From a virus (taxonomy: Duplodnaviria > Caudoviricetes), in IMG/VR virus record IMGVR_UViG_3300012667_000174, positions 1-36,524 of that record: a DNA stretch of 36,524 nt; one strand, given 5' to 3'. Of the stretch, positions 493 through 23,859 are shown piece after piece; the first letter of the stretch is position 1; the number at the start of each line of letters is the position of its first letter. The translations under genes and the position numbers were made by a program. Under the pieces are notes generated by a model. That model saw only the letters and a program-made list of their open reading frames with translations. It had not been told where the DNA came from and ran no database searches.

Positions 493-494
493 AT

Positions 495-3951: not shown

Positions 3952-3962
3952 GTTTATTCCCC

Positions 3963-4964: not shown

Positions 4965-4989
4965 TGTATTACTCCATAATTATGGACAT

Positions 4990-5013: not shown

Positions 5014-5033
5014 TCTTTCTTTGGGTTTGTCCG

Positions 5034-5297
5034 TTACCCAAATAATTTACGCTTATCTGATGTTTGTATCGCTGCCATCTTGCCAGTTACTACAACGTCT
5101 TTTAAGCTCTTTTCTATTTGATTTAATAGTTGCATAGCAATCACTAGACGATTGTGCGTTTCTGCATCGCCTAATGCGCTTATAGACATACTATTGATGA
5201 TTCCTTCACGTACTTTTGTAATAGCTTCCTTAAATAAAGGATTTTCTAATACTTCGTTAGCACGTTCACCACGTTTAATCTCAGAAAGTTGTTCCAT
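5034..5297 (-). CDS. Small helical protein between portal and scaffold (Bbp19-like position)
   Basis: 87 aa, RGERANEVLENPLFKEA; typical position in this type of head module. Confidence 0.65.
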   Translation of the reverse strand: MEQLSEIKRGERANEVLENPLFKEAITKVREGIINSMSISALGDAETHNRLVIAMQLLNQIEKSLKDVVVTGKMAAIQTSDKRKLFG

Positions 5298-7275: not shown

Positions 7276-8531
7276 TAGACTATCCCTTGTGTGCTATATT
7301 TAATTTTATCTATTCCGCCCCATGCTTCGTTCTTCATTTGGTCGATAGATGTTGCCATGTATCTGAAAGCATCTGCTCCATGAGAGTATTCATCATGTAA
7401 AGGTGCGCCAGGTTCTTGTGTGTTTCCGTTAATACTACGTCTATAGTGCTTTAAACAATCAACTAAACGATTAGCTGACTTATCAAAGTAACAACGATGG
7501 AAGTTCATACGTGTAATCTTAATGCCTGACTCAATGTCAGCAATAGGAACAATACGTGTGTCCCAACCTTGCTTACGCATAATATCTTCAGCAGAGATGC
7601 CATACTTGAAGTCTTTAGTTCTACCATCATGTGGTAAGAACATCTGACCCCAGTTATAGTTTAACGCTCTAAGCTCGCTAGAATAACTGTCAAGCGTTCT
7701 ATGATTGTCCTCAATATATCCAATAATCCGAACATCAGAAACCCCACGCTGACATAAGATAACAGACATAGAATCATTCCAGCCCAAATCCATAACGACA
7801 TGAACTTTAAGCATAGGGTCGTAAGGGACTGTAGTAATCCTGCCATGCTCTTGTGCTTCCCTAATTTCATTACTATAAATAGCCCCATCCACAGCAGCTT
7901 TGCATTCACCAAGCCAAATGTTCTTGTAGTCAGGGTTGTGCGCTAAACTGTGTAAGCGTTCATCTTCCAATACCTGTGGAAACCAAGGATTGTCATTGTA
8001 GTTTACTTTAACTACATGAGCGTTCTCTGGTGGATTGACTACGAATCGTTGGTAAGTGTCATCAGTATCTACATCAGGATTAAAGCTAATCCATATCTCT
8101 GAATCAGGCTTACGTACAGTAGGAATAAGAATATCCCATGAGCGTTTAGATACTGTCTGAGCTTCTTCTACCCATACAATGTCTACACCCTCAAAAGACT
8201 TAATAGACTCTACTGTGTTAGTTGCTAGACCTGCAAAGCTAATCTGTGTTCCGTTCTGTCCTCTAATCTCTGATTCTAATATCTCATAGAAAGCACCTAA
8301 GCCTAATGCTTGGATTTGGTCAGAGAGTAATTGGTGTACAGATTGCTTAATAGACTTTTGAACCTCACGAGCGCATAGGATACGTAATGTCCTATTAGCA
8401 CCTTGTAAGATTAATGCCCTAGCAAAAGACCATGACTTACCTGAGCCTCGACCACCATACGCTACTTTGTAACGATGAGGAGAGAATAGGAACTCTAGCT
8501 TACTCGGAAACTGTGCTTGTGGGAGTAACAA
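7275..8531 (-). CDS. terL: Terminase large subunit (PBSX family)
   Basis: Walker A YGGRGSGKS, Walker B VWVEEAQ, SFNP, nuclease motifs DLGWND and SHGADAFRY. Confidence 0.96.
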   Translation of the reverse strand: MLLPQAQFPSKLEFLFSPHRYKVAYGGRGSGKSWSFARALILQGANRTLRILCAREVQKSIKQSVHQLLSDQIQALGLGAFYEILESEIRGQNGTQISFAGLATNTVESIKSFEGVDIVWVEEAQTVSKRSWDILIPTVRKPDSEIWISFNPDVDTDDTYQRFVVNPPENAHVVKVNYNDNPWFPQVLEDERLHSLAHNPDYKNIWLGECKAAVDGAIYSNEIREAQEHGRITTVPYDPMLKVHVVMDLGWNDSMSVILCQRGVSDVRIIGYIEDNHRTLDSYSSELRALNYNWGQMFLPHDGRTKDFKYGISAEDIMRKQGWDTRIVPIADIESGIKITRMNFHRCYFDKSANRLVDCLKHYRRSINGNTQEPGAPLHDEYSHGADAFRYMATSIDQMKNEAWGGIDKIKYSTQGIV

Positions 8532-8811
8532 AGACTAATCCTATGTTTGTTGGGTTACCTTCACCGTCTACAGTACTAATCTCTTGTTTAGCTACTGCCT
8601 TGCCTTCAAAACGGTCAAATACAAATTCTACAGCCCATCTCTCGCCCTCTGCGAAAGCATCAGCTATCTTCTCTACACCTAAACGCATCTTTAATCTGTC
8701 GTCAGCGTGTAAAGCAGCGTGTAATAAGGCTGATAGTTGTGACCCCTTACCGGCATTGTTATTGCCTAGTGGTGCGCCTCTTTTGTTTATATTTGTATTT
8801 TCTGTATCCAT
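8500..8811 (-). CDS. terS: Terminase small subunit (putative)
   Basis: GAPLGNNNA motif and DRFEGKA; overlaps the start of terL. Confidence 0.75.
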   Translation of the reverse strand: MDTENTNINKRGAPLGNNNAGKGSQLSALLHAALHADDRLKMRLGVEKIADAFAEGERWAVEFVFDRFEGKAVAKQEISTVDGEGNPTNIGLVFVTPTSTVSE

Positions 8812-8851
8812 TTGATTTATATGACTCCGTGTAGGTTGGTCACTCTCTTTG

Positions 8852-9187
8852 TTATGCTTTGTTCATTGAAGGTGCGTTAAAGTTAAATCCTAATACTCCG
8901 CCTGTCTGTTGACCTTGAGATGGAGATAAGAATCGTCCTGCACCATAAGAGTTATTCATTGCTATAGGTGCTTGTGTTTGTGGTGCTGTGTATAGAGCTG
9001 ATAGGTATGGCATCAATTGATTGATAGAAGGTACATTAACATTCTTAGATGCTGCATCAGCACGTGCAATCATTTCTGCTACCATAGAAGGTTGTACAGG
9101 TTCAGGCTTAGGTTGCATTTGACTTAATAGTTGAGAAAATGGATTGTATCCATACATCCCATTATATTGATTAGCACCGATACCCAT
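8852..9187 (-). CDS. Hypothetical low-complexity (Q/N/P/M-rich) late protein
   Basis: 111-aa ORF co-directional within the late operon. Confidence 0.6.
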   Translation of the reverse strand: MGIGANQYNGMYGYNPFSQLLSQMQPKPEPVQPSMVAEMIARADAASKNVNVPSINQLMPYLSALYTAPQTQAPIAMNNSYGAGRFLSPSQGQQTGGVLGFNFNAPSMNKA

Positions 9188-9195
9188 AATAGCCC

Positions 9196-9897
9196 CTATA
9201 AATTGCTTATTTTGTTATCCCCTGTTAAAGGGTAAATCATTCGTTGATACGTATTCCACCATTCATGACTGTAAGGACTGTATTGATAGTCTTTAAAGCA
9301 TGGTGTTCCTAATGTGTGATGGATTAGTTTTGCATCTTTGTTATATACGTACTCAGTTTCTAACCAATTCCATTCAACAGGTAAATCACCTATGAATCTA
9401 TCTTCAAGCCAGCTAAACCTATGAAGGTATGAGCCAGTAGATTCCATCACCAATTCCGGTGTGAGCTTTTTGTTCTGCCAATGATGACAGTTCCATAAAA
9501 TAACTGATGACCAGTTCTTTCTAGGGTAATCTTCGTTCTTAGCTCCTAAATACTTTATAGGATGCTTTGTTTGGTAATCATGCTTTACGACCCATACAGC
9601 CTTCTCAGGTTCTTGTTCAGGGTATTTAAGTAACTCAGCTACATCGCCTGTGCATATCATGTCGCCATCACAGAACACAGCAGTACCCTTGTAATCACAT
9701 AAAGAAGGGACTAGAAATCGTGAGTAGATAAAAGCATTACTGCCATCTACGTGCTTCTCTTCATAGCCCTTGAGCGTACTTAACGCTAGTGGAGTGAATG
9801 AAACTGGAATACTGCTGTGTTCGATTACGGACTGACAGAAAGCGTGATAAGCGACTGGCTCTACCTTACTATCAAATCCGACAAATATATGTAACAT
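9196..9897 (-). CDS. GT-A fold glycosyltransferase (GT8-like)
   Basis: IFVGFD, FIYSRFLVP, DxD motif FCDGDM, RKNWSSVILWN, EWNWL and HHTLGTP motifs. Confidence 0.87.
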   Translation of the reverse strand: MLHIFVGFDSKVEPVAYHAFCQSVIEHSSIPVSFTPLALSTLKGYEEKHVDGSNAFIYSRFLVPSLCDYKGTAVFCDGDMICTGDVAELLKYPEQEPEKAVWVVKHDYQTKHPIKYLGAKNEDYPRKNWSSVILWNCHHWQNKKLTPELVMESTGSYLHRFSWLEDRFIGDLPVEWNWLETEYVYNKDAKLIHHTLGTPCFKDYQYSPYSHEWWNTYQRMIYPLTGDNKISNL

Positions 9898-10037
9898 TAT
9901 TTTTTCTTAGTGTTGAGTTCACTTCGTACAATATCACGAATCATTTTATCCATCGCAGCTTCTTTTAGCTTTTTCTTTTTCATCTCAATGGATTCTTCTT
10001 GCTTCTCTAGCTTTTCGTATGCTTTAGACTTCATCAT
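9897..10037 (-). CDS. Small basic protein, 46 aa (not in ORF track)
   Basis: Manual translation MMKSKAYEKLEKQEESIEMKKKKLKEAAMDKMIRDIVRSELNTKKK; stop overlaps the next ATG. Confidence 0.65.
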   Translation of the reverse strand: MMKSKAYEKLEKQEESIEMKKKKLKEAAMDKMIRDIVRSELNTKKK

Positions 10038-10039
10038 AG

Positions 10040-10204
10040 CTATTTGCCTTTCTTCTTAGACTTGCCAGCTTCGCTAAGAGCAATAGCAATTCCTTGTTTT
10101 GGATTGGTAACTACTTTACCGCCCTTGCCTGAGTGCAATGTGCCTTCTTTAAACTCAGTCATAACTTTGCTTATTTTCTTTTGTGCTTTAGTAGGCTTCT
10201 TCAT
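10040..10204 (-). CDS. Small basic protein, 54 aa, DUF6496-like (not in ORF track)
   Basis: MKKPTKAQKKISKVMTEFKEGTLHSGKGGKVVTNPKQGIAIALSEAGKSKKKGK; AAGGA RBS; first gene of the late operon. Confidence 0.8.
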   Translation of the reverse strand: MKKPTKAQKKISKVMTEFKEGTLHSGKGGKVVTNPKQGIAIALSEAGKSKKKGK

Positions 10205-10219
10205 TACAATCCTTTAAAC

Positions 10220-10246
10220 AAAAAAAAAGACCCACCTAAGTGAGTC
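10220..10246 (-). terminator. Intrinsic terminator in the late leader (tR'-like)
   Basis: Minus strand GACTCAC-TTAG-GTGGGTC followed by a long T-run, about 50-75 nt after the late promoter. Confidence 0.85.
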
Positions 10247-10301
10247 GAATGGAGATAGGTAAATACGTTTATTACAGACGCAACTTTCCTACTTGGTTCG
10301 T

Positions 10302-10330
10302 ATAATATCATAATTTAAGGAGTTTGTCAA
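10302..10330 (-). promoter_or_regulatory. sigma70 late promoter (pR'-like)
   Basis: TTGACA-17 nt-TATTAT on the minus strand immediately after the Q-like gene. Confidence 0.85.
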
Positions 10331-10343
10331 GTGTTATTTTATA

Positions 10344-10673
10344 TTAATGTAAATTTCGTTCGCTTAACCGTGTTTGTAGGTTATCTAACGCTAAATCATA
10401 GTTTAACTCTAACTGTGTATCTGTCATTTTAACTTTCTGTCCTAAATAGACAAAGTAAATAGCATCTCTTTGTAGTCTAGGTAGGTCATCTATCACCTGG
10501 TCTACTGTACGTGCAGATGTAATGTCAATTTCTTCACCCATCTCATCAAAAGAACTAATACCACTAGACATAAATCCTGCTGCTTTACTAGGATAGCCTA
10601 AACTCTTACCTGAGTTACCCTTCATGTAGTCTTTCCATAAGTCCAAGTAGTACAAGACTTTTCCGCTATCCAT
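10344..10673 (-). CDS. Q-like late antiterminator / sigma-region-4-like regulator
   Basis: YLDLWKDYM..SLGYPSKAAGF...TVDQVIDDLPRLQRDAIYFVYL pattern; lies after rusA and before a promoter plus terminator. Start revised to the ATG at 10673. Confidence 0.7.
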   Translation of the reverse strand: MDSGKVLYYLDLWKDYMKGNSGKSLGYPSKAAGFMSSGISSFDEMGEEIDITSARTVDQVIDDLPRLQRDAIYFVYLGQKVKMTDTQLELNYDLALDNLQTRLSERNLH

Positions 10674-10827
10674 TGCTACATCCTTTATTGCATCCAGCTT
10701 GATATGCCATCCATGCACCTTGAGTATAAACATTAGCGTAAATATCTAACTCATTGTCTTTGCTTAATATAAATTTATGTTCTTTTGCCCACTTCTCAAA
10801 AGATAGTTTTATATCTTTACTCTCCAT
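10666..10827 (-). CDS. Hypothetical protein, 53 aa (not in ORF track)
   Basis: MESKDIKLSFEKWAKEHKFILSKDNELDIYANVYTQGAWMAYQAG...; overlaps both neighbours by a few nt. Confidence 0.7.
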   Translation of the reverse strand: MESKDIKLSFEKWAKEHKFILSKDNELDIYANVYTQGAWMAYQAGCNKGCSNG

Positions 10828-11206
10828 CTATATCCCCCATAGCTTCATAGACCTGCAATATACTGTTATTTGCGCATAACACAACTTTACACATTCCACC
10901 CTTGATAACATTGCGCCTTACGCAAATAATGGTATCAATCTGTTCATCGTCAAGATATACACCAGCGTGTTCTAACGCATCTTGTAATGCTTTAATACGA
11001 TTGTCTAAATCAAACTTACGTTTGGTTGGTGGGTACAATGCAATAAAGATGGCGATTCTACCATGAATCTTAGCATTAGCTTCTATGCAAGCCTCTTGAA
11101 CTAGCCTACGAAACTCGTGTGCTTCTTTCTTTAAGTATTTGCGTTTACCTGCAAATCCCCACATATGATTGACTGTTGGTGGGAACGGAAGCGTTAGCTT
11201 AATCAT
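10817..11206 (-). CDS. rusA: RusA family Holliday junction resolvase
   Basis: LTLPFPPTVNH and PPTKRKFDLDNRIKALQDALEHAGVYLDDEQID motifs. Confidence 0.93.
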   Translation of the reverse strand: MIKLTLPFPPTVNHMWGFAGKRKYLKKEAHEFRRLVQEACIEANAKIHGRIAIFIALYPPTKRKFDLDNRIKALQDALEHAGVYLDDEQIDTIICVRRNVIKGGMCKVVLCANNSILQVYEAMGDIDGE

Positions 11207-11496
11207 TTAACCACCAGCATTTCATTCTCAATCATGTGCTTTATAGTTAGTCTATGAGCTAGTTCCCATATCTCTCTACGTTCTTCTTTAGTTAGGTCTT
11301 TACCATTATCTAGCTGTGTATGGCATGAGTGGCACATAGAAGCTACCATAGCATCACTAGCCTTGATTCCTGTACCTTTACCATCACGCTGCTGGTTAGA
11401 GTGAGCAGCACATACTGTACCATCCATACGACCACATACTTGACATGGTAACTCACGACACAGTTCTAATAACTTCTTGTTACGATAGATTGGCAT
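11203..11496 (-). CDS. Zn-binding nuclease-like protein (DUF1364/DUF968-like)
   Basis: CQVCG...AAHSNQQRDGKGTGIKASD....CHSCH motif; nin-region position. Confidence 0.75.
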   Translation of the reverse strand: MPIYRNKKLLELCRELPCQVCGRMDGTVCAAHSNQQRDGKGTGIKASDAMVASMCHSCHTQLDNGKDLTKEERREIWELAHRLTIKHMIENEMLVVK

Positions 11497-11497
11497 A

Positions 11498-11818
11498 TTA
11501 GTCCTGTAAATATACGCTACGTTCAGCGCAGAATTTCTCTACTTCATTCATAAACTCGTTAAGTTCTTCTACAGTTAGTTCAGCAGTAGATTTTAACGCA
11601 TAAATAGTACCATTAGCACCAACATATTCATTGTAGCCTAGCCATCTGTCTTTACACATCACTTTCCACCATTGGTGTGGGTGGTATAGTCCGTCTTTAC
11701 CTTTAAAGTTTTCAGACATCAGCATGAATAACTTATGTAGTCTAGCGTTTTGAGGTAAACTTCTTTTTGGTGTGTGTCCGCATAATTTACATTTTTTAGA
11801 TTCTTGCAAATTGTCCAT
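11498..11818 (-). CDS. NinB/Orf-like recombination protein
   Basis: KRSLPQNARLH and KSTAELTVEELNEFMNEVEKFCAE motifs. Confidence 0.78.
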   Translation of the reverse strand: MDNLQESKKCKLCGHTPKRSLPQNARLHKLFMLMSENFKGKDGLYHPHQWWKVMCKDRWLGYNEYVGANGTIYALKSTAELTVEELNEFMNEVEKFCAERSVYLQD

Positions 11819-12266
11819 AATACTTTTCCATTACTTCTTTTGCTACAAGTTCAGCAAATTCTAAATCATCAAAAAATCCAAAATCTGTTCTAACTTTATT
11901 AACAGTACATCTAACTCGCCATTTGCCAGTTTTTTTATTTAAATTAACATTTTTTATATTTGATATTGTTGAATCTAATGTTTTTCTATTTAAACTATTT
12001 TGACTTGCATTAGCTTCTCTTAGATTGCATATTCTATTATCAGACCTGTTTCCGTTTATATGGTCTACTTGTTCTTTTGGTAAATAACCATGAACATACA
12101 ACCAAGCTAAACGATGAGCTGGGTATCTAACATTTTTAACTTGTATTTTTATGTAGCCATTAGATATATCAATTCCACCCATAACTTTACCTGTTTTATT
12201 TTTTATAAAGATTCCATTTTCTTCATCATAAAATACTAATGATTTTAATTCTTCTTGAGTAATCAT
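11796..12266 (-). CDS. HNH homing endonuclease with C-terminal AP2-like domain
   Basis: AHRLAWLYVHG...VDHINGNRSDNRICNLREA; GKWRVRC...FGFFDDLEFA; very AT-rich. Confidence 0.92.
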   Translation of the reverse strand: MITQEELKSLVFYDEENGIFIKNKTGKVMGGIDISNGYIKIQVKNVRYPAHRLAWLYVHGYLPKEQVDHINGNRSDNRICNLREANASQNSLNRKTLDSTISNIKNVNLNKKTGKWRVRCTVNKVRTDFGFFDDLEFAELVAKEVMEKYYGQFARI

Positions 12267-12490
12267 TTGCGTTTTTTCTCCAAAGGTTTTGGCACATAAG
12301 GGTTTATCTCTTTTTTGTTTCCATCAAAATATTCAATCTTCCAACCTTTAGACTGATAAACAATGCTGTCTTTAGTTGTATGAAACTCAGCATCAGGATT
12401 CCATGACCTAATTGCTTTTACAAAGTCTTTAATAGAATCTTCACGTCTAAGTATGTTATGTGGAAATGGTTTATCTATATGGTCTTTCAT
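12263..12490 (-). CDS. Hypothetical protein
   Basis: 75-aa ORF with ATGA overlaps on both sides. Confidence 0.65.
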   Translation of the reverse strand: MKDHIDKPFPHNILRREDSIKDFVKAIRSWNPDAEFHTTKDSIVYQSKGWKIEYFDGNKKEINPYVPKPLEKKRK

Positions 12491-12657
12491 TGTAAAGTTT
12501 CACTCATAGTTTCGTAGTCCATTATCTGAAAGTACATATCTTGGTCAAACGTACAGTTACCAAAGAACGCATCAAACTTATATGAGTTCTCAAACGTCAT
12601 TAAGCATATAAACTGAGCATCGTCATCTTCACTATCGTACACTTCAACTAATATCAT
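12487..12657 (-). CDS. Small acidic protein, 56 aa (not in ORF track)
   Basis: MILVEVYDSEDDDAQFICLMTFENSYKFDAFFGNCTFDQDMYFQIMDYETMSETLQ; ATGA overlaps on both sides fill the gap exactly. Confidence 0.7.
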   Translation of the reverse strand: MILVEVYDSEDDDAQFICLMTFENSYKFDAFFGNCTFDQDMYFQIMDYETMSETLQ

Positions 12658-12857
12658 TTTGAACCACCATTAGGAACTGCAATTCCTGTGCTTGGCATTT
12701 GATATGGTACAAAAGCAGGTGGTGGAATATAAACAGGTGGTGGAGCAACAGGAACTGGAATATAAACAGGAGGCGATGGACAATTCCATCCATCTTGATA
12801 TGAACAAGCCTGTGCGTTAAAAGATAATGCTAGTAATGCTAATAATATTAATCTCAT
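12654..12857 (-). CDS. Small exported Pro-rich protein
   Basis: Signal peptide MRLILLALLALSFNAQA, two Cys, PPVYIP twice; AGGAGA RBS. Confidence 0.7.
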   Translation of the reverse strand: MRLILLALLALSFNAQACSYQDGWNCPSPPVYIPVPVAPPPVYIPPPAFVPYQMPSTGIAVPNGGSK

Positions 12858-12866
12858 GTCTATCTC

Positions 12867-13835
12867 CTAAAATTTAATTTGCCATACACGTTCATGCTGA
12901 CTTGCTTTGTATCTCATAGAAGGAGCATCAAACCACAATGCAATCTCACCCTCCCATTCACCATGACGTTGCTTATCACATATCAACAAGCAATCAGGTG
13001 CATTTAAATCTTCATCCTTAGCCTTACCACTACGTATTAACTTCTCTTTTCTTTTATTACGCCACACGGTCATTACATTGTCAACTTGATTCGTAATGTC
13101 TGCTGAACCTGCAACATCCATCTTGTTCGGTGGACTATACTCATCTTCACCCTTACGACTATGAGCAATCAAATGAACATGAACATTTAAATCTCTTGAA
13201 GCTGCACAAAGTTTATCTAAAAACTCTTTCTGTGCGTTCATATCATCAGAACGTACACCACACTTCATCAAGCTATCAATTACAAAATGCTGTATTCCTA
13301 AAGTTTCTGCTGCATAGTAAAGAACAGCAATTACTCTATCACCATTTACAGTTCCTTGTTGGTCATACATCCATAACTTTCCATCAAGAAAATTAAAGTA
13401 ATCTCCAATAAACTGCTCTGTAGGTTTTTCAGTTCCAGTAGCTTGTCTAGTCATACGCTGTAACGTGCTATATGGGTGCATCTCAAAAGAAGCTACACAT
13501 ACTTTTATATTCTGCTGCACAATTGAGTTTATAACCTGACCAACAAGCTGGCTTTTACCATGACCATTAATACCTGACCAAAGGCTTACCTCCCCTTGCC
13601 TCATCCTAAACTGTTCAAACGTCTTATCCCACGGCAACTTAGCACCTTGCAACTGTTCATCTTTATAAAAGTAATCTACAACTTCTTCTTGGTAATCAAG
13701 TGCTGACTTCACGTTAGCCTTATCTTCTTCTCTAGCCTTCATAAACGCTTCAAAGTCAACCTTTGGTAGCATCATTCCTTGACGCTTTTGCCTGGCTTCA
13801 TCTAGTGCTATTGCACCACGCTCTAAGTTACTCAT
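12867..13835 (-). CDS. SF4 (DnaB/T7 gp4-like) replicative helicase
   Basis: Walker A GINGHGKS, SFEM, VIDSL, LIAHSRK, GSADITNQVDNV and DKQRHG motifs. Confidence 0.93.
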   Translation of the reverse strand: MSNLERGAIALDEARQKRQGMMLPKVDFEAFMKAREEDKANVKSALDYQEEVVDYFYKDEQLQGAKLPWDKTFEQFRMRQGEVSLWSGINGHGKSQLVGQVINSIVQQNIKVCVASFEMHPYSTLQRMTRQATGTEKPTEQFIGDYFNFLDGKLWMYDQQGTVNGDRVIAVLYYAAETLGIQHFVIDSLMKCGVRSDDMNAQKEFLDKLCAASRDLNVHVHLIAHSRKGEDEYSPPNKMDVAGSADITNQVDNVMTVWRNKRKEKLIRSGKAKDEDLNAPDCLLICDKQRHGEWEGEIALWFDAPSMRYKASQHERVWQIKF

Positions 13836-14238
13836 AATCTATTGCCTCTCTAATACGTTCGTAAGCAACTTCTAGCCTTTCTAAGTCAGAAGGCTCTAAT
13901 TCTTTATTTTTCTTTAATTCAAAAGCCGCCATTAATACTACCTGACATTCAAACTTAACTGCACTTAGAATATCACTAGCATAAAACTTTTTTTGTACTG
14001 GAGCTTTGTATTGCTCTATTGGCTCTGGAAATAAATCAGATAACTGTAACCCTACAGATGCAACTACATCAGAAGCAGAGCATCCTTGAAAGCAATGCAA
14101 TAATATACGACCATCAGGTTCTTCTTTAATACGTAACGCTGTAGGATTAGTTCCGCTATGTGAAGGACAGCAAGCACGCCATGAATTACGACCATGTGAT
14201 TTTACTTTTGTAAGACGTTCTAAAAGTGTATTAATCAT
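13828..14238 (-). CDS. Primase-type Zn-finger domain protein (no TOPRIM domain)
   Basis: WRACCPSH...GRILLHCFQGC...VGLQLSDLF motif; upstream of the helicase. Confidence 0.8.
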   Translation of the reverse strand: MINTLLERLTKVKSHGRNSWRACCPSHSGTNPTALRIKEEPDGRILLHCFQGCSASDVVASVGLQLSDLFPEPIEQYKAPVQKKFYASDILSAVKFECQVVLMAAFELKKNKELEPSDLERLEVAYERIREAIDYE

Positions 14239-14894
14239 ATAGCACCTGCAAATATATCATTACTACCGTTAGGACTTTCATCTTCCCATCGTGCATTGTT
14301 TATGTATGTAGAAGCCATAGGACTAAAACCACGCTTCCATCCATCAGTTTCTTTTTGCCATGCAAGCGCATCTAATACTACATTCAAATCAGGTTTATGC
14401 TTATTCCATGCTTTTATTGCTTGAGCTTTACCTGCTCTATTAGGATAAACAGACCAAAATTCATCAAATCCATCATGTATGTTTTTATCTAAACTAGCCT
14501 TACCTATACTAACCTGTGGTTCCATATTGTATACATCTTGTATACATCTTGTATCCATTGTATATACATTGTTGTTTTTTAAAGATAATTGTTCTTTATG
14601 CTCAACATAAACAGTAGGTTTATATCTATCTTTTTGAATAAGATTATGTATCTTCCAATGCTTGATTACACATACGCCAGTTTCAAATGGGATAATAAAG
14701 TTTTTAGATAATAATATTTTAAGGTCATCATCAGCACATCCAAGCATACGCTGAATCTTTTTAGCATTATTAATGAAACCATCATCATCTGCACGCATAG
14801 ATAAATGAAAGTATAAGGCTTGTGTTGATAGTGGCATATCCAGGAAAGCATCGCTATCTATGATAGTCTTTGCAAACATTCTACGTTCAGCCAT
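14235..14894 (-). CDS. Replisome organiser / replication initiator (O-like)
   Basis: MAERRMFAKTIIDSDAFLDMPLSTQALYFHLSMRADDDGF N-terminus and FDEFWSVYP...ASTYINNARWEDE C-terminus. Start revised to the ATG at 14894 (GGAG RBS). Confidence 0.88.
   Translation of the reverse strand: MAERRMFAKTIIDSDAFLDMPLSTQALYFHLSMRADDDGFINNAKKIQRMLGCADDDLKILLSKNFIIPFETGVCVIKHWKIHNLIQKDRYKPTVYVEHKEQLSLKNNNVYTMDTRCIQDVYNMEPQVSIGKASLDKNIHDGFDEFWSVYPNRAGKAQAIKAWNKHKPDLNVVLDALAWQKETDGWKRGFSPMASTYINNARWEDESPNGSNDIFAGAI
14527..14569. repeat. Iteron-like tandem repeats; putative replication origin
   Basis: TTGTATACATC x2 followed by degenerate TTGTATCCAT and TGTATATACAT, in the linker of the initiator gene next to an AT-rich tract. 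Confidence 0.65.
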
Positions 14895-14905
14895 ATTTTT
14901 ACTCC

Positions 14906-14991
14906 AAAAAAAAGCCACTAAACAAAACCCTCCAGCTTTTTAGGCTGGTTGCAGGACATCCGAGTAGGATGCAGGGCTTTGATTAATGGCT
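14906..14991 (-). ncRNA. c4/CI-like antisense RNA (three-way junction plus U-tract)
   Basis: 19-bp closing stem (14991-14973 with 14931-14913; 2 GU pairs, 1 mismatch) enclosing two hairpins. Loop CTACTC and junction CCTGCAA are complementary to upstream GAGTAG and TTGCAGG. Confidence 0.72.
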
Positions 14992-15026
14992 ACTCTAAAT
15001 TAAATCACCTGCAAGTGACAGATAAC

Positions 15027-15054
15027 ATTATACAGATTTTACAGAAAAAGTCAA
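15027..15054 (-). promoter_or_regulatory. sigma70 leftward (replication operon) promoter
   Basis: TTGACT-16 nt-TATAAT on the minus strand. Confidence 0.8.
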
Positions 15055-15153
15055 GTGTTATTTTGTAACAGTTGGCAAAGTGTAAGACTTAAATGTAATT
15101 CGTGCTAATTAAAAAAACTTATTAATCTTTACTGTTTAATTTAAAAATAAATG

Positions 15154-15181
15154 TTGACACAAGTTTCAAAGTCGATACAAT
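15154..15181 (+). promoter_or_regulatory. sigma70 rightward early promoter
   Basis: TTGACA-16 nt-TACAAT with an AT-rich upstream tract. Confidence 0.78.
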
Positions 15182-15207
15182 GAACACATCAACAACAGGA
15201 GAGCAAC

Positions 15208-15303
15208 ATGGATAACTTAACAATCGTAGTATTAGGTCTTGCAGTATTCATTATAGTTTTATTAGTTGCTGAAGTATTAGCTAAATTTTTTGATTGGAAA
15301 TAA
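15208..15303 (+). CDS. 31-aa single-TM peptide, first early gene (not in ORF track)
   Basis: MDNLTIVVLGLAVFIIVLLVAEVLAKFFDWK; AGGAG RBS. Confidence 0.75.
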   Translation: MDNLTIVVLGLAVFIIVLLVAEVLAKFFDWK

Positions 15304-15305
15304 TC

Positions 15306-15527
15306 ATGGCATCTTTAGATACAACAATCAACGGTATTGAATTAACAGTTTACTACACTTGTGATTTTGAGCGTGACCAATATGGCACAGGTGATAGTCC
15401 TGATGTGTATAACATTGACATTACAGAAATAGAAGTAGCTGACAGTACAGTTAATATTATGAGCTTACTGCCTGATAGTGTTATTAGTGACATTGAAGAT
15501 GAAATTCTTGACTTGGAGGCTAACTAA
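15306..15527 (+). CDS. Small acidic early protein
   Basis: MASLDTTINGIELTVYY...; start revised to the ATG at 15306. Confidence 0.75.
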   Translation: MASLDTTINGIELTVYYTCDFERDQYGTGDSPDVYNIDITEIEVADSTVNIMSLLPDSVISDIEDEILDLEAN

Positions 15528-15529
15528 TC

Positions 15530-15709
15530 ATGCAAAGATTTCCTGACAATATTGACTGGGATGCAACAGAAGAAAAACACAATGATGCGTTTTGGGACTG
15601 GTGTATATCTAATGGCATTCATAACGAAGATTACATACTAGATAACTATGGTGATTTGTTTGAAGATTTTGCTGACGGAATAGACGATAAGGACTTTGTA
15701 TATGTGTGA
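15530..15709 (+). CDS. Small acidic/aromatic early protein, 59 aa (not in ORF track)
   Basis: MQRFPDNIDWDATEEKHNDAFWDWCISNGIHNEDYILDNYGDLFEDFADGIDDKDFVYV; GGAGG RBS. Confidence 0.75.
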   Translation: MQRFPDNIDWDATEEKHNDAFWDWCISNGIHNEDYILDNYGDLFEDFADGIDDKDFVYV

Positions 15710-15789
15710 GCAACAATACCAGGCAGAAGTATTAGACGAATTGAAACAAATAGAATATAATATCAAACTTGAAACAAAGAAAGGTGAGT

Positions 15790-15951
15790 ATGAAAGAGCA
15801 ATTAATGATAAGTGTAGACGAAGCAGCAGAGCTTTTGAACGTCACACCTGCTTGGGTCAGACGATTATGTGCCAACCAGCGAATCAATGCTGTACGAGTA
15901 GGCAATCAATGGGTAGTGTTAGACTTTAACGGATATGAAAGGACTAAATAA
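15790..15951 (+). CDS. Excisionase-like HTH DNA-binding protein
   Basis: ISVDEAAELLNVTPAWVRRLCANQRINAVRVGNQWVV motif; start revised to the ATG at 15790. Confidence 0.85.
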   Translation: MKEQLMISVDEAAELLNVTPAWVRRLCANQRINAVRVGNQWVVLDFNGYERTK

Positions 15952-16169
15952 TGATTACTAATATTTTAGTGAACCAGCAAAATTTAGAGGTCGAATACGA
16001 TTTAGATATTAGTGCTGTTTACTTTGGTGATTTAGAATCAGAGTACGTAGAGATTGATATTAAAAAAGTAGTATGGATGGGTCAAGATGTATTGCCTCTT
16101 ATTACTGCACTAGAGGATACAGAAGCACTTAAGTTAATTATTCGTGACAGATTTGAGGACATAGAATGA
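15951..16169 (+). CDS. Small acidic early protein
   Basis: 72 aa, coupled to both neighbours; pattern resembles 15306-15527. Confidence 0.7.
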   Translation: MITNILVNQQNLEVEYDLDISAVYFGDLESEYVEIDIKKVVWMGQDVLPLITALEDTEALKLIIRDRFEDIE

Positions 16170-16780
16170 GCAACGTATATACAAAACTAATGCAAGCCAG
16201 GCTAAAGCTACAAAGTACAGCTTTAAACAAATCAGGTCATAACAAGTTTGCTGGTTACAAATACTTTGAGCTTGGTGACTTCTTGCCTACAGTACAAAAC
16301 ATATTTAGTGAATTAGGATTGTGTGGTGTAGTGTCATACGATACAGAACTAGCTAAATTGACTATTACTGACGGCACAGATAGTATTGTTATCACTAGCC
16401 CTATGGGTTCAGCAGCGTTAAAAGGCTGCCATGAGGTACAAAACATTGGTGCAGTAGAAACATACCAACGTAGGTATTTATGGGTTACGGCAATGGAAAT
16501 TGTAGAGCATGATGTACTAGATGCGACTACAGGAACTGATAGTGGTACACCTGTAAAAAAGCCTGAGTCTGTAACTCCGTTAGCTGGTGCGCTTGATGGT
16601 TTTACAGCACAAGAGAAAGAACTATTACACGGATTAGCTGAAGAAGTTACGTTCTTTGTTAAAAACAATGATGTAGCTCAAGCATTAGAAGTAGCAGGTA
16701 GTTTAAGCAATGAGGAAAAGACTGCGTTATGGTCTTTATTAGATAGTAAAACACGTTCAGCAATGAAGAAAGGTATTTAA
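16166..16780 (+). CDS. erf: ERF family single-strand annealing protein
   Basis: [20 protein letters not shown] and [14 protein letters not shown] motifs. Confidence 0.9.
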
Positions 16781-16781
16781 A

Positions 16782-17039
16782 ATGGCACAATACGAACAAC
16801 GAGATAATAGCGGTACTCTTTTTAAGAACTTAAATAAAACAAAAGATACGCATCCTGATATGACAGGAACAGGCATGGTAAATGGAAAGGAAGTGCGTTT
16901 ATCAGCTTGGACTAAACAAGGTAAATCAAGTAAGTTTTTAAGTGTTTCATTTAGTGAGCCATACGTTAAAGAAGCAGGTGAGCCAGCTAAAGCTAATGGT
17001 TATGTAGCGGATGCGTTTGAGGACGATATTCCGTTCTAG
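16782..17039 (+). CDS. SSB-like OB-fold protein (DUF736-like)
   Basis: NSGTLFKN...HPDMTG...LSAW; acidic DDIPF tail; follows erf. Confidence 0.85.
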
Positions 17040-17045
17040 GGTCAA

Positions 17046-17123
17046 TGGGGAGTAACACTATTAGTTTGGATAGCTAAGACCTCAATATCTTGTGATTATT
17101 TTATTGAACCGTGTTATTCCCCA
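17046..17123 (+). ncRNA. Predicted structured intergenic RNA element (three-way junction)
   Basis: 13-bp stem TGGGGAGTAACAC/GTGTTATTCCCCA enclosing hairpins TTAGTT/AGCTAA and TCAATA/TATTGA. Confidence 0.45.
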
Positions 17124-17141
17124 CCAATTAAGGAGATAGTT

Positions 17142-17663
17142 ATGGAATTTAAAACATCAAAGAAATGTTATTTACAGTCGATTATTGCAGTACGTAGACG
17201 TATCAAAATACTTGAGTTGTTACAAGATAAAATATTAACAACAAAACAGATTACAACAGAACTAGACGAGAAAGCAGCACGTATTATTGAGGATATGCAA
17301 CGATTAAAGCATGAAGGATATGTGATTGCAGACCATAAAGGTAACTGTCCTCTAGGTAAGAAGCAGTCATTCTTCTATAAAAAGACTAAAAAGAAATACT
17401 ATGGTTACGAGTTTATTGCTTCTATTGAGATGAACGCTGACTTAGAAACTGCGTTAAAAGAATACAAATCTCAAATCAAGATTAACATTAACAATGATAA
17501 GCCAGGCAAAGATGTCTACATTAAAGTAGAAGGCAATCCTAACGCTACTATTGTAATGAACTCTAACAGACCTGCTGGGTTCTATGCTTATCAAAAACCG
17601 AAGCCACAAGTTAATAGAGGCATTGGCAGTACATTCTCTTTATATGATGGAGCTACGCTATGA
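17142..17663 (+). CDS. Winged-HTH DNA-binding protein (putative)
   Basis: RRIKILELLQDKILTTKQITTELD....IIEDMQRLKHEGYV pattern; AAGGAG RBS. Confidence 0.65.
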   Translation: MEFKTSKKCYLQSIIAVRRRIKILELLQDKILTTKQITTELDEKAARIIEDMQRLKHEGYVIADHKGNCPLGKKQSFFYKKTKKKYYGYEFIASIEMNADLETALKEYKSQIKININNDKPGKDVYIKVEGNPNATIVMNSNRPAGFYAYQKPKPQVNRGIGSTFSLYDGATL

Positions 17664-17923
17664 AACATAAATGGCATAAAGAAATAAAAGCATGGGCTGA
17701 TGGTGCAGAGATTGAAGCTAAATGGAATGTTACTCAATCTGGATGGTTTGTAGACCCAATTCCAAGATGGAATAATGATGAGTGGGAATATCGCATTAAA
17801 CCACAGCCTAAAGAGCCACAGTATTTGTATGTGTATCAAGACATAGGAGAATTAGTATTAGAAAGAAGCAATACGCTTGTTTTGGATATGAATTTGATAG
17901 GCAAAATTAAACTAGAGGATTAA
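17660..17923 (+). CDS. Hypothetical phage protein
   Basis: HKWHKEIKAWADGAEIE...P.W...EYRIKP pattern seen in phage early regions; ATGA overlap. Confidence 0.75.
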   Translation: MKHKWHKEIKAWADGAEIEAKWNVTQSGWFVDPIPRWNNDEWEYRIKPQPKEPQYLYVYQDIGELVLERSNTLVLDMNLIGKIKLED

Positions 17924-17925
17924 TC

Positions 17926-18213
17926 ATGGAAGTTATCAAACAGATTTTAGTTAAACAAACGTATGACGAAAGATTGAAATATAATGAATATCTACGCAAG
18001 GTTGAAGAAGTTAAGTTTGAGATGGCAGAGCGTTATAGATTGCATCCTAACAACTTTATTACAAAGGAAAACAGGAATGACGATTTTAGAGATTGTAACG
18101 TGCCTCTTTATCTGTGCAGGAATCGTGCGACATTGGTAGAAGATTGGGATGAGAAGCGTATAGATACTATTGGTTCAAACGGCAACGAGGGCTATCATTA
18201 TGGTGAACTATAG
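17926..18213 (+). CDS. Hypothetical protein
   Basis: GAGGA RBS; C-terminal WDEKRIDTIGSNGNEGYHY segment. Confidence 0.65.
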   Translation: MEVIKQILVKQTYDERLKYNEYLRKVEEVKFEMAERYRLHPNNFITKENRNDDFRDCNVPLYLCRNRATLVEDWDEKRIDTIGSNGNEGYHYGEL

Positions 18214-18373
18214 CGATAAACACTATGAGCTGCTTGCCACGACCATTAAACGCTACTTAAAAGGTGCTGGTGATAATATTACATTAGTCGAGCTAGGTAA
18301 AGCGATTAACATGATTGTAGAGATGGTTGAGCGTGAGTCTATGAGAGATATGCGTGAGGAACATAACAAGTGA
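18170..18373 (+). CDS. Hypothetical protein (true start probably the ATG at 18200)
   Basis: ORF fills the gap in the early operon; GAGGG lies upstream of the ATG at 18200. Confidence 0.6.
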   Translation: MVQTATRAIIMVNYSDKHYELLATTIKRYLKGAGDNITLVELGKAINMIVEMVERESMRDMREEHNK

Positions 18374-19113: not shown

Positions 19114-19584
19114 ATGGCTTATAAAGTAAAACCAATAGATTACGAAGAAATTTCTGAAGCTGTATATTACAAAGATGGATTGTTGTTTTGGAAAAAGAAT
19201 GACAAACCTGCTGGTACTACAACAGTAGCAGGATATTCAAAAGTTCAAATAAATAAAATTGTTTATAGTACTCATAGATTAGTATGGGTATTGTTTAATA
19301 AAGAAATACCTTTAGATAAACAAATAGACCACATAGATAGAAATCCAAGTAACAATAAAATTGAAAACTTAAGATTGGTTGATGCAGTTTCTAACGCTTT
19401 AAATAAAAAATGCAGAATGAGCAATACAGGAATTAGAGGCGTAAGCAAAGACCGTGATTATTACAAAGTAAGTTTTACCGTAAAAGGCAAATCAATTCAC
19501 GTTGGAAATTTTAAAAAGTTTGAAGAAGCTAAGAAAGTAGCAGAAGAATATTATAGTAAAATAGTTGAAGATGCATTTGCATAA
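19114..19584 (+). CDS. HNH homing endonuclease with AP2-like domain
   Basis: THRLVWVLFN...IDHIDRNPSNNKIENLRLV; NTGIRGVS...HVGNFKKFEEA. Confidence 0.92.
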   Translation: MAYKVKPIDYEEISEAVYYKDGLLFWKKNDKPAGTTTVAGYSKVQINKIVYSTHRLVWVLFNKEIPLDKQIDHIDRNPSNNKIENLRLVDAVSNALNKKCRMSNTGIRGVSKDRDYYKVSFTVKGKSIHVGNFKKFEEAKKVAEEYYSKIVEDAFA

Positions 19585-19589
19585 ATAAG

Positions 19590-19613
19590 AAAGCCCCAGT
19601 TACGGGGCTTTTT
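19590..19613. terminator. Intrinsic terminator at the convergence of the two transcription directions (probably bidirectional)
   Basis: AAAGCCCC-AGTTAC-GGGGCTTT with a T-run on the + strand and an A-rich tract on the other side. Confidence 0.85.
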
Positions 19614-19614
19614 A

Positions 19615-19686
19615 CTATCGGTTCATCACGTATGCGGTGATTTCCATTCCAAAACGCATTTCAGTAGCTGCTGGTTTAGTCCACAT
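19615..19686 (-). CDS. pqqA: Pyrroloquinoline quinone precursor peptide PqqA (not in ORF track)
   Basis: Manual translation MWTKPAATEMRFGMEITAYVMNR: W-x-K-P leader, R-x-G-x-E-x-x-x-Y core, 23 aa. AAGGA RBS, tandem TAG TAA stops, then a terminator. Confidence 0.95.
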   Translation of the reverse strand: MWTKPAATEMRFGMEITAYVMNR

Positions 19687-19755
19687 AATAATTTCCTTTG
19701 TATGTAATATTTCGCAAAATATTCAACACAACGATTTTTGCATTGAATGTATTAC

Positions 19756-19764
19756 ATAGTATCA
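19756..19764 (-). promoter_or_regulatory. Putative extended -10 promoter for pqqA
   Basis: TG-A-TACTAT on the minus strand about 70 nt upstream of the pqqA ATG; poor -35. Confidence 0.5.
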
Positions 19765-19907
19765 GAAAAGTGGATTTTCAGCATCAGTAAAACCATTAAA
19801 ATAGGCTAGGATTATCATTAAACGCATTTTAAGTGGGCTATAGCGATACTTTGCATAAAACATAAGCTACGATACTAAACTTAAAAAATAATCGCTATAA
19901 ACACACG

Positions 19908-20354
19908 TTATTTTGACAAAAATAATGCAGCTTCATCTTTTCTACGATTATCCAACCCTTTTAGGATTTTACCACCTGCTTTATTGTATTTCAGGAGCGA
20001 TTCAATAGCACCTTCTTTATCTCCACGATTAAGTTTCTGACGAAGCGTGCTTTTCTGAAGTGTTCCCAAACCAAGATTAAAAGCAAAACTGACAAGAGCA
20101 TCAAACTCACCTTGTGTAAGTTGGATAGAAATATATTTCTCAATCCCTCGTTCAAATCGAGTGACATCTTTAGCGAGTATTGCATAAACTTCCTCTAAAC
20201 TGAAAGTACGATTCCAAGCATCAGGTAAAGACTTTCCATCGCCAATAAGATGACCAACACCAACAGTCCATAAACCAGCAGGACATTTATACGGTTTTTG
20301 TCGGACACCCTCATGGTGCGCTAACATCTTTAAACATTTTTCACTTGCTCTCAT
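19908..20354 (-). CDS. Endolysin, GH24 lysozyme
   Basis: HEGVRQKPYKCPAGLWTVGVGH catalytic region, FDALVSFAFNLG and GLDNRRKDE motifs. Confidence 0.95.
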   Translation of the reverse strand: MRASEKCLKMLAHHEGVRQKPYKCPAGLWTVGVGHLIGDGKSLPDAWNRTFSLEEVYAILAKDVTRFERGIEKYISIQLTQGEFDALVSFAFNLGLGTLQKSTLRQKLNRGDKEGAIESLLKYNKAGGKILKGLDNRRKDEAALFLSK

Positions 20355-20855: not shown

Positions 20856-21326
20856 TTAATTTCCTAATGGGTTTGTAGATGCACGTTGTAGTGCTTTCAT
20901 TTGTGCTTTGATACCTTCAATGCCTGATTTAACTTCTTCACGGACACCACCTAAAGCAGCTTGTGTTTCACGAGCGTTGCCATTAGCAATCGCTTTAGCT
21001 TCCATTGCCTCACCTTTAGCAGTAGAAGCCTTATCACTCACAGCTACTAACTGATTAGATGTAGCTACAGAAGCATCTTTAACTGTATTCACAGAAGTTT
21101 CTAAGCCTGATAATTTAATCTTTAACTCGTTAATCTGAGCCTTAACTTCAGTATCGTCATAAGGTTTAGCTTCTTCAATCGCTTCAGTCGCTGAAATAAC
21201 CCGATTGTAGGTAGTAATTCCTACGTAGATTGCCCCAGAGCCTGTCGTTACGACTCCTAAAAGAATCGCCCACATCGTTGTCGGTGAGAAGTTGAAGTAA
21301 GAAGTCTGTGTTTCCTCTGAACTCAT
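20856..21326 (-). CDS. Single-TM coiled-coil protein
   Basis: N-terminal TM (MWAILLGVVTTGSGAIYVGI), long heptad pattern, C-terminal NPLGN. Confidence 0.7.
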   Translation of the reverse strand: MSSEETQTSYFNFSPTTMWAILLGVVTTGSGAIYVGITTYNRVISATEAIEEAKPYDDTEVKAQINELKIKLSGLETSVNTVKDASVATSNQLVAVSDKASTAKGEAMEAKAIANGNARETQAALGGVREEVKSGIEGIKAQMKALQRASTNPLGN

Positions 21327-22239
21327 TAGATAGCTCCTGTGTGTAATCTAAGTTAGTTTGTAATTGTTGTTGTTGAAATTCCATAGGCTTGTTTAATATC
21401 TCTAAGGACATAACAAGACCAAAGCCAGGTACTAAGTCCTTGCCTTTAGGTACTTCAATCTTTGTATCAGTTTTTGTTTCTTTTGTTTGTGTAGGACTAG
21501 CAACAGTCGGTGATGATGACGTACTTACGCTTCCAGATGACTGTGTCTTTGGTGCTTCCGCTTTTGGTGCTTCCACTTTCGGTATTTCCGCTTTTGGCAT
21601 CTCCGGTGGTTGTGCTTCCATTGGTGGAGGTGCTGGTGGTGGAGGTGGTGCTTCCGGTGGAGGAGGCGGTGGTATTATCGGACTCGCTGGATTTACTGGA
21701 CTGCTGACATTCGTTGGGTTTGTTACTGACTTCACACAACTGTTTTGAATCTCTACCCATTGACCAAAAATAGGTTGACCGTAAGGGTCTGGACATGACG
21801 ATACCCTTTGCTCTGAAATTGAACCTGTGTAACCATCGCTACACGCTACTTGTCTTTCTTCAATGCTTGTTTGACAAGTTGGAGGGTCTGGCGAGCAATT
21901 GTTAGAAGTTGTAACCCAATCATCCCAAGTTTCGCTAGAACATTGGTAAGTACGGCTTTGATTGATAGCACCTGAGTAATGCACAGGACAACTAATGCTT
22001 TGAGTTTCAGTACGAGTGGTACAAGTTGGTTGAACTGGTTGTTGAGTTCCGCAAATTGGGTCTTGAGGGCGGTAAGGACACCACGCAATTGCAAGAGCTT
22101 CTGAGTTAGATATGCCGTTACAGACGAGATTAGTGACCCAACCTTCTGGACTAGGCGTGTAAGAACAGTACCAAGCATAAGCGTTTCCTTTAAATAATAT
22201 TATGAATAACAGACCAGCCGTTTTTATTAGATTTAGCAT
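21184..22239 (-). CDS. Exported Cys-rich repeat protein with Pro-rich linker
   Basis: Signal peptide ending AYA; two C-x-x-x-Y-[ST]-G-x-I...R...C...W...N-x-C repeats; poly-Pro and EAPK repeats. Confidence 0.75.
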   Translation of the reverse strand: MLNLIKTAGLLFIILFKGNAYAWYCSYTPSPEGWVTNLVCNGISNSEALAIAWCPYRPQDPICGTQQPVQPTCTTRTETQSISCPVHYSGAINQSRTYQCSSETWDDWVTTSNNCSPDPPTCQTSIEERQVACSDGYTGSISEQRVSSCPDPYGQPIFGQWVEIQNSCVKSVTNPTNVSSPVNPASPIIPPPPPPEAPPPPPAPPPMEAQPPEMPKAEIPKVEAPKAEAPKTQSSGSVSTSSSPTVASPTQTKETKTDTKIEVPKGKDLVPGFGLVMSLEILNKPMEFQQQQLQTNLDYTQELSNEFRGNTDFLLQLLTDNDVGDSFRSRNDRLWGNLRRNYYLQSGYFSD

Positions 22240-22801
22240 ATCTCATCAATGTTGTTCTAGGAGTGTTAGTTTTAATACTAGCTTCTTTTGAACCATTATA
22301 TTTAACTCCATCTTTTATATAAATTGTTGTGGTTTTAAATTGAGTTGCTATACATTTTGGATTTGTTAAAGATGCTATTCTTTGCTTTTGTTTTGCTTCT
22401 ATAGTGTGCTTATGACCAAGTGTATATTTATTTCCTTTTAAAGCATTGCTGATTTTTATTTTTGATTCAAATGAATGTTTGTAATCTTTAGAAAAGCCAT
22501 AATTTGTTTTAACTGAATTAAGCATAAAGCTACAATCTAATGCTTTTAACATTGCTGCTTCTAAATTTATTGCTAATTCATAATCATCAGTTGTATAAAT
22601 AACAGAATATTCTAATGAGTCAAATCCATATTTATTGCAACATCTTTGCAATTGAACACAATGATGTTTATTATTTTTTAAATGACTTTTATGCTCACGC
22701 CATCTTTCTTCTATATTTTTTGATACTCCAATATAGAATTTATCATTTGCTTTGCATTTTATTACATACACACCTATCATTTTATTCCTTAGCAGAATCA
22801 C
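22190..22801 (-). CDS. GIY-YIG homing endonuclease with NUMOD3-like DNA-binding motifs
   Basis: GVYVI...FYIGVSKNIEERWREH; HSFESKIKIS and HTIEAKQKQ; very AT-rich. True start may be the ATG at 22780. Confidence 0.92.
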   Translation of the reverse strand: MILLRNKMIGVYVIKCKANDKFYIGVSKNIEERWREHKSHLKNNKHHCVQLQRCCNKYGFDSLEYSVIYTTDDYELAINLEAAMLKALDCSFMLNSVKTNYGFSKDYKHSFESKIKISNALKGNKYTLGHKHTIEAKQKQRIASLTNPKCIATQFKTTTIYIKDGVKYNGSKEASIKTNTPRTTLMRYAKSNKNGWSVIHNII

Positions 22802-23448: not shown

Positions 23449-23859
23449 TTACTCAAGTAATTTACGAAGTTTAGAGCGCAGTCCACGCCTACAATTTTCA
23501 TGAAAGGGTATCCATTCCATATTGCTAATTTCATATCCAAGTGATGAGTCAATTCTATCTACAGAAGGAGTTAATCGCCTTTCGTAGTTTGAATCTTCCC
23601 ATAATTTAAATAGTTCATGAAATGTTGCATTATTATTAGACCACTCATAAAAGTCATCACGACCAAGCAATGACTTTCCTTCATATAAATGTATTTTAAG
23701 TTTTTGAACGCCTGTAACTCTTGATTGCATATTTCTATACAATCTAACAAGAAAACCTTTTTTTGTTTTCTCGTATTTTTTAGTACAAGCGTTTCCGTTT
23801 AACTTTCTTTTTTCTCTTTGCCAAGCATTTTTTTCTTCTCGATTCATCACAAGCTCCAA
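23449..23859 (-). CDS. Divergent HNH-like endonuclease (putative)
   Basis: PSVDRIDSSLGYEISNMEWIPFHEN motif (DRID...GY...N..W.....N), basic N-terminus. Confidence 0.65.
   Translation of the reverse strand: MELVMNREEKNAWQREKRKLNGNACTKKYEKTKKGFLVRLYRNMQSRVTGVQKLKIHLYEGKSLLGRDDFYEWSNNNATFHELFKLWEDSNYERRLTPSVDRIDSSLGYEISNMEWIPFHENCRRGLRSKLRKLLE

Follow-up and report, generated by a model that had tools for sequence, protein, structure and literature searches.

A pqqA gene among phage genes

The window, by which we mean the whole stretch of DNA analysed (36,524 nucleotides, IMG/VR record IMGVR_UViG_3300012667_000174), is a complete, circular 36.5-kb phage genome with a 55-nt terminal overlap, classed as having direct terminal repeats and as 100% complete. 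It encodes an SU10-type capsid and portal, a terminase, a helicase/initiator module and an endolysin; no tyrosine integrase was found in the window, and GenBank phages searched with its capsid and helicase gave nothing above 60% identity. Among these genes, in a bona fide phage genome, sits a pqqA gene. It lies on the minus strand at 19615-19686 and encodes the 23-aa peptide MWTKPAATEMRFGMEITAYVMNR; the frame closes with TAG, and a further in-frame stop, TAA, comes next. The locus comprises the following elements:

19908..20354, minus strand: endolysin, the upstream neighbour (PHROG 7, E 1.5e-53; PF00959)
19784..19798, minus strand: 15-bp imperfect palindrome TAATGG-TTT-TACTGA, predicted site of a host activator of pqqA (motif score 19.6 bits)
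19756..19764, minus strand: extended -10-like element TG-A-TACTAT, 22 nt past the palindrome (spacing analysis)
19721..19748, minus strand: predicted 11-bp hairpin at the 5' end of the putative transcript (RNA fold)
19694..19699, minus strand: Shine-Dalgarno-like AAAGGA, 7 nt 5' of the ATG (sequence)
19615..19686, minus strand: pqqA, 23 aa, core FGMEITAY with Glu15 and Tyr19 (translation, PF08042/TIGR02107 match, purifying selection)
19612..19614, minus strand: second in-frame stop codon TAA (sequence)
19590..19611, minus strand: intrinsic-terminator-like hairpin with T runs on both strands, common to pqqA and the convergent HNH gene (terminator scan, sequence)
19114..19584, plus strand: HNH endonuclease, the convergent downstream neighbour (PHROG 99; PF13392)

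An earlier sequence-only reading had proposed a PqqA precursor peptide here, with a ribosome-binding site and a double stop, and had suggested a profile search as a check. The proposal is confirmed. The peptide scores about twice the threshold of both family profiles (PF08042, 41.5 bits against a cut-off of 21.1, E 1.3e-10; TIGR02107, 39.1 bits against 20, E 4.5e-10), and its 23 residues and Glu15/Tyr19 pair agree with the length of about 23-29 aa and the Glu-x-x-x-Tyr spacing of the family (PMC2294125); PHROGs has no family for it. A per-genome E-value of 4.7e-11, with no match in any of 14 control genomes, shows that the match is not due to chance, and by profile and residue pattern the ORF is a real member of the PqqA family. 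An AGGA/GGAG site likewise precedes 107 of 114 canonical viral copies and all 18 viral copies with Met at minus one. A terminator scan called none between the endolysin and pqqA, so read-through from the endolysin is possible. Rfam gave no match at gathering threshold across the window, and near pqqA only sub-threshold chance matches.

The absence of any other pqq gene, also claimed at first reading, was borne out: domain searches across the whole window found no PqqD, no radical SAM and no PQQ-enzyme domain, and neither PqqB nor PqqC families appeared among 57 ORFs scanned against Pfam (92 are listed, the remainder mostly overlapping shadow frames). The phage thus lacks pqqB-E in its own genome, and the PQQ enzymes would have to be the host's.

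Several other genes of the window deserve mention. Genes for a methyltransferase, a TPR-containing protein and a GT8-like glycosyltransferase (495-2332 and 9196-9897) are found among the head genes and may form a module that modifies the virion or a surface. Homing-endonuclease-like genes of the HNH and GIY-YIG types occur at 2684-2983, 11796-12266, 19114-19584, 22190-22801 and 23449-23859; the one at 19114 accompanies pqqA of the window's type and the terminator in four other loci (L130, L183, L186 and L187; 79-95% aa identity). A 351-aa Cys- and Pro-rich, secreted-looking protein (21184-22239) has no Pfam or PHROG match and is conserved in another contig, L132 (49%).

Copies of pqqA in Methylophilaceae and their phages

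The Glu and Tyr of PqqA are consumed, one peptide for each PQQ, through cross-linking by PqqE/PqqD and PqqF-type cleavage (PMC2294125; PMC12997753), and mutating either residue abolishes PQQ synthesis (PMC2294125). Methylophilaceae chromosomes carry 3-12 pqqA copies, and stand-alone copies are normal there (Beck et al. 2014, PMC4109929). For comparison we used a family of 361 genomes, which we infer to be Methylophilaceae from its genome sizes (0.7-3.7 Mb), methanol-dehydrogenase-type genes, leaders identical to those of cultured methylophages, and pqqA copy number. All 201 genomes sampled contained 1-12 pqqA-type matches each to an FGFEVTMY-type motif, which fits the published 3-12 copies (PMC4109929). 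The window's gene resembles these chromosomal copies in length, in leader (for some copies), in ExxxY spacing, in its stand-alone cassette and in its upstream palindrome, but differs in the core: among the matches listed, 150 of 150 read FEVTMY (732 more matches exist), whereas the window reads FGMEITAY. The difference from the host FGFEVTMY form, pointed out in the sequence-only reading, is real among the copies listed.

The host is probably a freshwater member of the Methylophilaceae, to judge from the leader, the shared upstream motif, a relative in a family MAG and freshwater-labelled read runs. The Methylophilaceae-type leader, proposed at first reading, is identical in the phage gene and in some chromosomal copies of host-family genomes. 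When 1-18262 of the window was compared with the 361 family genomes, related phage contigs appeared in one genome (G984), helicase homologues in two more (G908 and G835, with no pqqA around either) and short matches of 25-37 nt; the same comparison found no prophage or CRISPR link. The proposal of a methylotroph host has indirect support from leader identity, the shared motif and a close relative phage contig within a family genome. The bin of a phage contig can mislead as a host link, since L137 (DATBNI010000307.1), an 8.5-kb phage contig bearing the same pqqA cassette with an upstream region 93% like the window's, sits in a Psychromonas MAG, where it is probably a mis-binned virus. The glycosyltransferase at 9196-9897 shares 65-72% DNA identity with chromosomal genes in many small host-family genomes and was rejected as a host marker: it also matches 5 outside-family genomes among 301 of the order, and so is weak host evidence. 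Part of the window is present in 20 of the 24 listed read runs and half of it in none; in runs labelled freshwater, aquatic or drinking water, 20-30% of the sampled words are found, and run X3 has short pieces that are nearly identical. In two RNA-labelled runs the contigs cover only fragments of relatives and cannot show transcription of the window's pqqA.

Viral pqqA has been noted before in freshwater, as the first reading had said. Coutinho et al. 2020 (10.1101/2020.04.02.019802; PMC7678222) reported PqqA in the Lake Baikal virus VP_266 and proposed a boost to methanol oxidation. That virus also has a phage-borne pqqA and a predicted Methylophilaceae host, but it is T4-like and carries a methanol dehydrogenase as well, whereas the window phage, of 36.5 kb and with an SU10-type capsid, has only pqqA; the part of the account available to us contains no peptide sequence, allele analysis or promoter (PMC7678222). 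A 2026 study of reservoir sediment lists viral pqqA, pqqD and pqqE as auxiliary metabolic genes, framed as phosphate solubilisation; it too has pqqA on viral contigs, and in the accessible part we found no sequence-level analysis (PMC13188868).

The gene is also present in cultured phages. A tblastn search of GenBank phages gave 12 records: nine are from cultured phages of Methylophilales/Methylophilaceae, one is a spring-water phage, and two are weak matches to Acinetobacter-phage records (E 0.5). Seven loci were inspected, all reading FGFEVTMY and none with a feature annotated on the pqqA strand. The methylophages Venkman, P19250A, MEP301, MEP401, MEP402 and Melnitz have the same small gene, missed by annotation in 6 of 6 loci, at unrelated genomic positions and with the canonical core, unlike the FGMEITAY of the window. 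The main texts on Melnitz and Venkman, as far as they were available, make no mention of a phage pqqA.

The upstream cassette

What lies upstream of these short genes? Motif discovery in 96 non-redundant upstream regions of canonical viral copies, with the window held out, yielded an imperfect palindrome of consensus TTAATGATTTTCCTTATG in 89 of the 96, mostly 70-120 nt 5' of the ATG, against 2/64 and 1/61 flanking regions and 0/47 intergenic regions before other phage genes. The window contains nine sites that score 9 bits or more, of which the one at 19784-19798 scores highest; the host form of the palindrome is TCATGA-AAA-TCATGA. The motif was scored in held-out sequences, where all 17 variant copies exceeded threshold, as did 3 of 6 phage loci from GenBank and, in host-family genomes, 10 of 12 copies (with the phage contig L284 counted among these). 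It was found before only 4 of 42 other gammaproteobacterial pqqA genes (the 42 include the loci of G313 and G146, neither of them among the 4) and before none of three full-length methanol-dehydrogenase-type genes; it is present before a related PQQ-type gene in one locus, L280, and Steroidobacteraceae-type operons whose precursor reads GMEITMY have the same upstream palindrome.

A strict-palindrome pattern, written after seeing the sites and required to match on both strands, was scanned across five host-family genomes, where 13 of its 15 matches lie about 110-160 nt before a pqqA. The other two precede a rhodopsin gene and a glycine-zipper protein gene. Matches on a single strand are more numerous, and two others that we inspected have no pqqA. 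The rhodopsin site (L312:2499-2513; G582:C1:862998) is a strict palindrome about 140 nt 5' of a PF01036 gene; the genome is a small one of the host family, and the site hints at a pqqA regulon that extends to the capture of light energy.

Across 94 non-redundant upstream regions, the distance from the palindrome to a -10 element downstream of it peaks at 22 nt, a spacing seen in 22 of them versus a shuffle maximum of 11. A generic sigma-70 scan called neither a promoter directly before pqqA nor the -10 element, and its calls were no more numerous than in shuffles (11 versus 11.7). In the window, transcription is predicted to start near 19749. Folding of 19580-19790 as RNA gave a z-score of -2.92 for the whole stretch, terminator included. 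We interpret the conserved site, at a fixed distance from a -10 box and common to host genes, as part of a predicted host-activator promoter. A candidate regulator is encoded at a bacterial GMEITMY locus (L136), where genes for a LuxR-type response regulator and a MoxY-like kinase lie divergently beside pqqA; homologues of this kinase occur in 5 of 5 host-family genomes. Literature searches on the palindrome together with methanol dehydrogenase and a response regulator, and on the core peptide strings, found nothing. Viral pqqA itself is published and common; the FGMEITAY core and the shared upstream site appear new.

A phage-restricted core and what the gene may do

The coding frame is conserved at the protein level. 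Between the window and L137 there are 10.5 synonymous versus 5.5 non-synonymous differences (pS 0.73, pN 0.11); across six alleles pS ranges over 0.07-0.84 and pN over 0-0.22, and within codons 11-23 pN is 0-0.03 among five of the six with pS up to 0.89. On this substitution pattern, phage pqqA is under purifying selection and is kept across phages. Copies with another residue in place of Tyr or Glu were sought in four IMG/VR scans, which between them allowed for most replacements (Tyr to Phe and Glu to Asp among them) in a frame that fits 95 of 120 sampled intact copies; the results were 0, 0, 0 and 0. Thus the ORF and its ExxxY are retained in related phages with mostly synonymous change, the conservation on which the sequence-only reading had staked its proposal. 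That reading had also raised an altered core or decoy; FGMEITAY did turn out to be truly distinct, conserved and seen only in phage-like contigs. Since the scans found no copy that had lost Glu or Tyr, they speak against a simple dead decoy.

How widespread is the variant among viruses? An IMG/VR scan for the intact PqqA motif gave an estimated ~2300 stretches, and the cores in 120 sampled from them read FEVTMY (112), FEVTLY (5) and FEITMY (3). A scan fixing only Met before Glu found four stretches, all continuing EITAY though Ile, Ala and Tyr were not imposed. Wider scans for an FGMEITAY-type core gave 9 viral and 10 metagenome stretches; once repeats of a contig or coding sequence (L178, L179, L182, L184, L188 and L190) are dropped, there are 18 distinct coding sequences and 13 peptides, the window included. 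Their leaders differ and their nine core codons vary only synonymously, every degenerate core position using 2-4 codons; the later scans selected on the core, so that its invariance is partly imposed, and the codon variety is not. The carriers are relatives of the window phage, members of another capsid family (L129 and L191) and large-phage-like contigs. All 10 metagenome stretches are phage-like contigs. L189 and L192, which have no structural hallmark gene, are classed as phage-like by inference.

The closest upstream regions to those of several variant copies are found in canonical-allele phages (L129 and L181, 0.89; L130 and L183, 0.81). L284, whose helicase is 89% identical in amino acids to the window's, carries the canonical allele in the equivalent place, after the same DUF3310 gene. 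The upstream likeness, together with L284, points to allele exchange between cassettes, and since so close a relative has the canonical allele at the same place, the two alleles appear interchangeable. A third core, FGMEICMY, was found in 3 of the 9 stretches of one scan, so far in phage contigs only; the upstream regions of these loci (L267, L268 and L269, one on a 329-kb contig) are nearly identical to that of the FGMEITAY-bearing L192. In one large-phage contig, L131 (4197-5466 and 10383-15621), the variant pqqA directly follows what we take to be peroxiredoxin- and AhpD-like ORFs, with presumed DnaK-, Hsp20-, ClpS- and S21-like genes nearby, a neighbourhood that suggests a redox or stress context for PQQ.

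In bacteria the picture differs in its combinations. A GTDB-wide scan, over one genome per species and many of them incomplete, gave seven matches to a Met-type core with a typical tail: six read GMEITMY, in Steroidobacteraceae or unclassified Gammaproteobacteria, the seventh was the phage contig L137, and no bacterial chromosome contained FGMEITAY. Five of the six GMEITMY loci adjoin ORFs that we take to be pqqB/C/E, Pfam confirming only a PqqB fold in L136. Within the 361 host-family genomes, a pattern with Ala, Ser, Thr or Gly (rather than Met, Leu, Ile, Val or Phe) before Tyr found nothing. A sample of 400 Gammaproteobacteria had PqqA in 63, and 5 of the copies read end in EVTAY; these sit in second pqqADE-like clusters, directly before PqqD/PqqE-like ORFs in each of the three loci inspected. 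Several Gammaproteobacteria (L248, L249 and L250) have such clusters with a precursor of the EVTAY type. In two of the three, genes for a small membrane protein, similar in both, and for an aminotransferase-like protein come next, and the product may not be ordinary PQQ; a second cluster of this type was nearly silent in Hyphomicrobium (PMC9851590). Each single core substitution thus occurs in chromosomal PqqA, but the combination is found only in phage-like DNA, which makes FGMEITAY phage-restricted. By its codon usage and distribution, FGMEITAY is a conserved allele, neither error nor decay, seen only in phage-like contigs.

Why would a phage carry a lone precursor gene? We think it probable, from the sequence comparisons above, that phage pqqA is a host-regulated auxiliary gene supplying PQQ precursor in its probable Methylophilaceae host. 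Host RNA polymerase and a host activator would transcribe the cassette, its promoter being switched on by the same predicted regulator as the host's own pqqA copies; the peptide would be processed by the host's PQQ enzymes, and the extra PQQ would keep XoxF/MxaF-type methanol oxidation running while the phage replicates. FGMEITAY would then be a still-processable allele spreading among phage cassettes by recombination. Hosts multiply pqqA and not the enzymes, and PqqA is expressed about 20-fold above PqqC/E (PMC2294125), which fits a limiting substrate; adding a 72-bp substrate gene under the host's control signal may be the cheapest gain for a phage. Against supply, the motif reaches threshold in no more than 3 of the 6 phage loci from GenBank and in none of the three full-length methanol-dehydrogenase-type upstream regions, and an allele missing from 361 host-family genomes and from bacterial chromosomes is not what a purely host-mimicking gene predicts.

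It is possible, if doubtful, that FGMEITAY is a phage-evolved allele with another job, a slow or dead-end (or faster) substrate that retunes cofactor supply. If so, the allele would be wired to the host pqqA regulon and made exactly when the PQQ machinery is active, a phage mimic of a ribosomal-peptide precursor balanced with the canonical allele across unrelated phage lineages. A rival reading seems unlikely to us: that the peptide is a trap, engaging PqqD/PqqE, slowing cross-linking or protease release and throttling host PQQ synthesis. The retained leader, Glu and Tyr, the restriction to phage-like contigs (0/361 host-family genomes), three core changes that travel together under purifying selection across unrelated phage types, and the existence of a second phage-only core, FGMEICMY, would all suit a trap; yet each change alone is present in chromosomal PqqA, nearly all viral copies are host-identical (112/120 FEVTMY), L284 carries the canonical allele at the same place, and the four IMG/VR scans gave no plainly dead copies.

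The variant could instead be an ordinary substrate, copied from or tuned to an unsampled host lineage with an FGMEITAY pqqA. Steroidobacteraceae-type operons, with GMEITMY and the same palindrome, and the one-genome-per-species, often incomplete sampling of GTDB lend this some colour, but all 10 metagenome matches are phage-like where a multi-copy host should have shown up, and the leaders are of Methylophilaceae type; we judge it quite improbable. That the cassette acts mainly as a DNA site soaking up a host regulator, the peptide being secondary, is very improbable: the palindrome is as widespread as the gene, but a single site at an activator-like distance from the -10 box and strong protein-level selection on the coding frame argue otherwise. 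A recently captured, non-functional host fragment or chance ORF is hardly credible: the synonymous excess largely refutes it, and family E-values near 1e-10, conserved Shine-Dalgarno and promoter elements and nine cultured-phage records also count against it.

Gene callers regularly overlook phage-borne pqqA, a gene that marks out the phages of methanol-oxidising methylotrophs in lakes and coastal seas. The palindrome, which in hosts lies almost only before pqqA, is a candidate operator for a regulon for which the literature we searched gave no site, and the cassette would let one observe a phage gene that is tuned to the metabolic state of its host. The phage-restricted core provides a natural means of probing how the residues flanking Glu and Tyr are read by PqqD, PqqE and proteases, and a peptide of 23 residues allows a direct test of supply versus sabotage.
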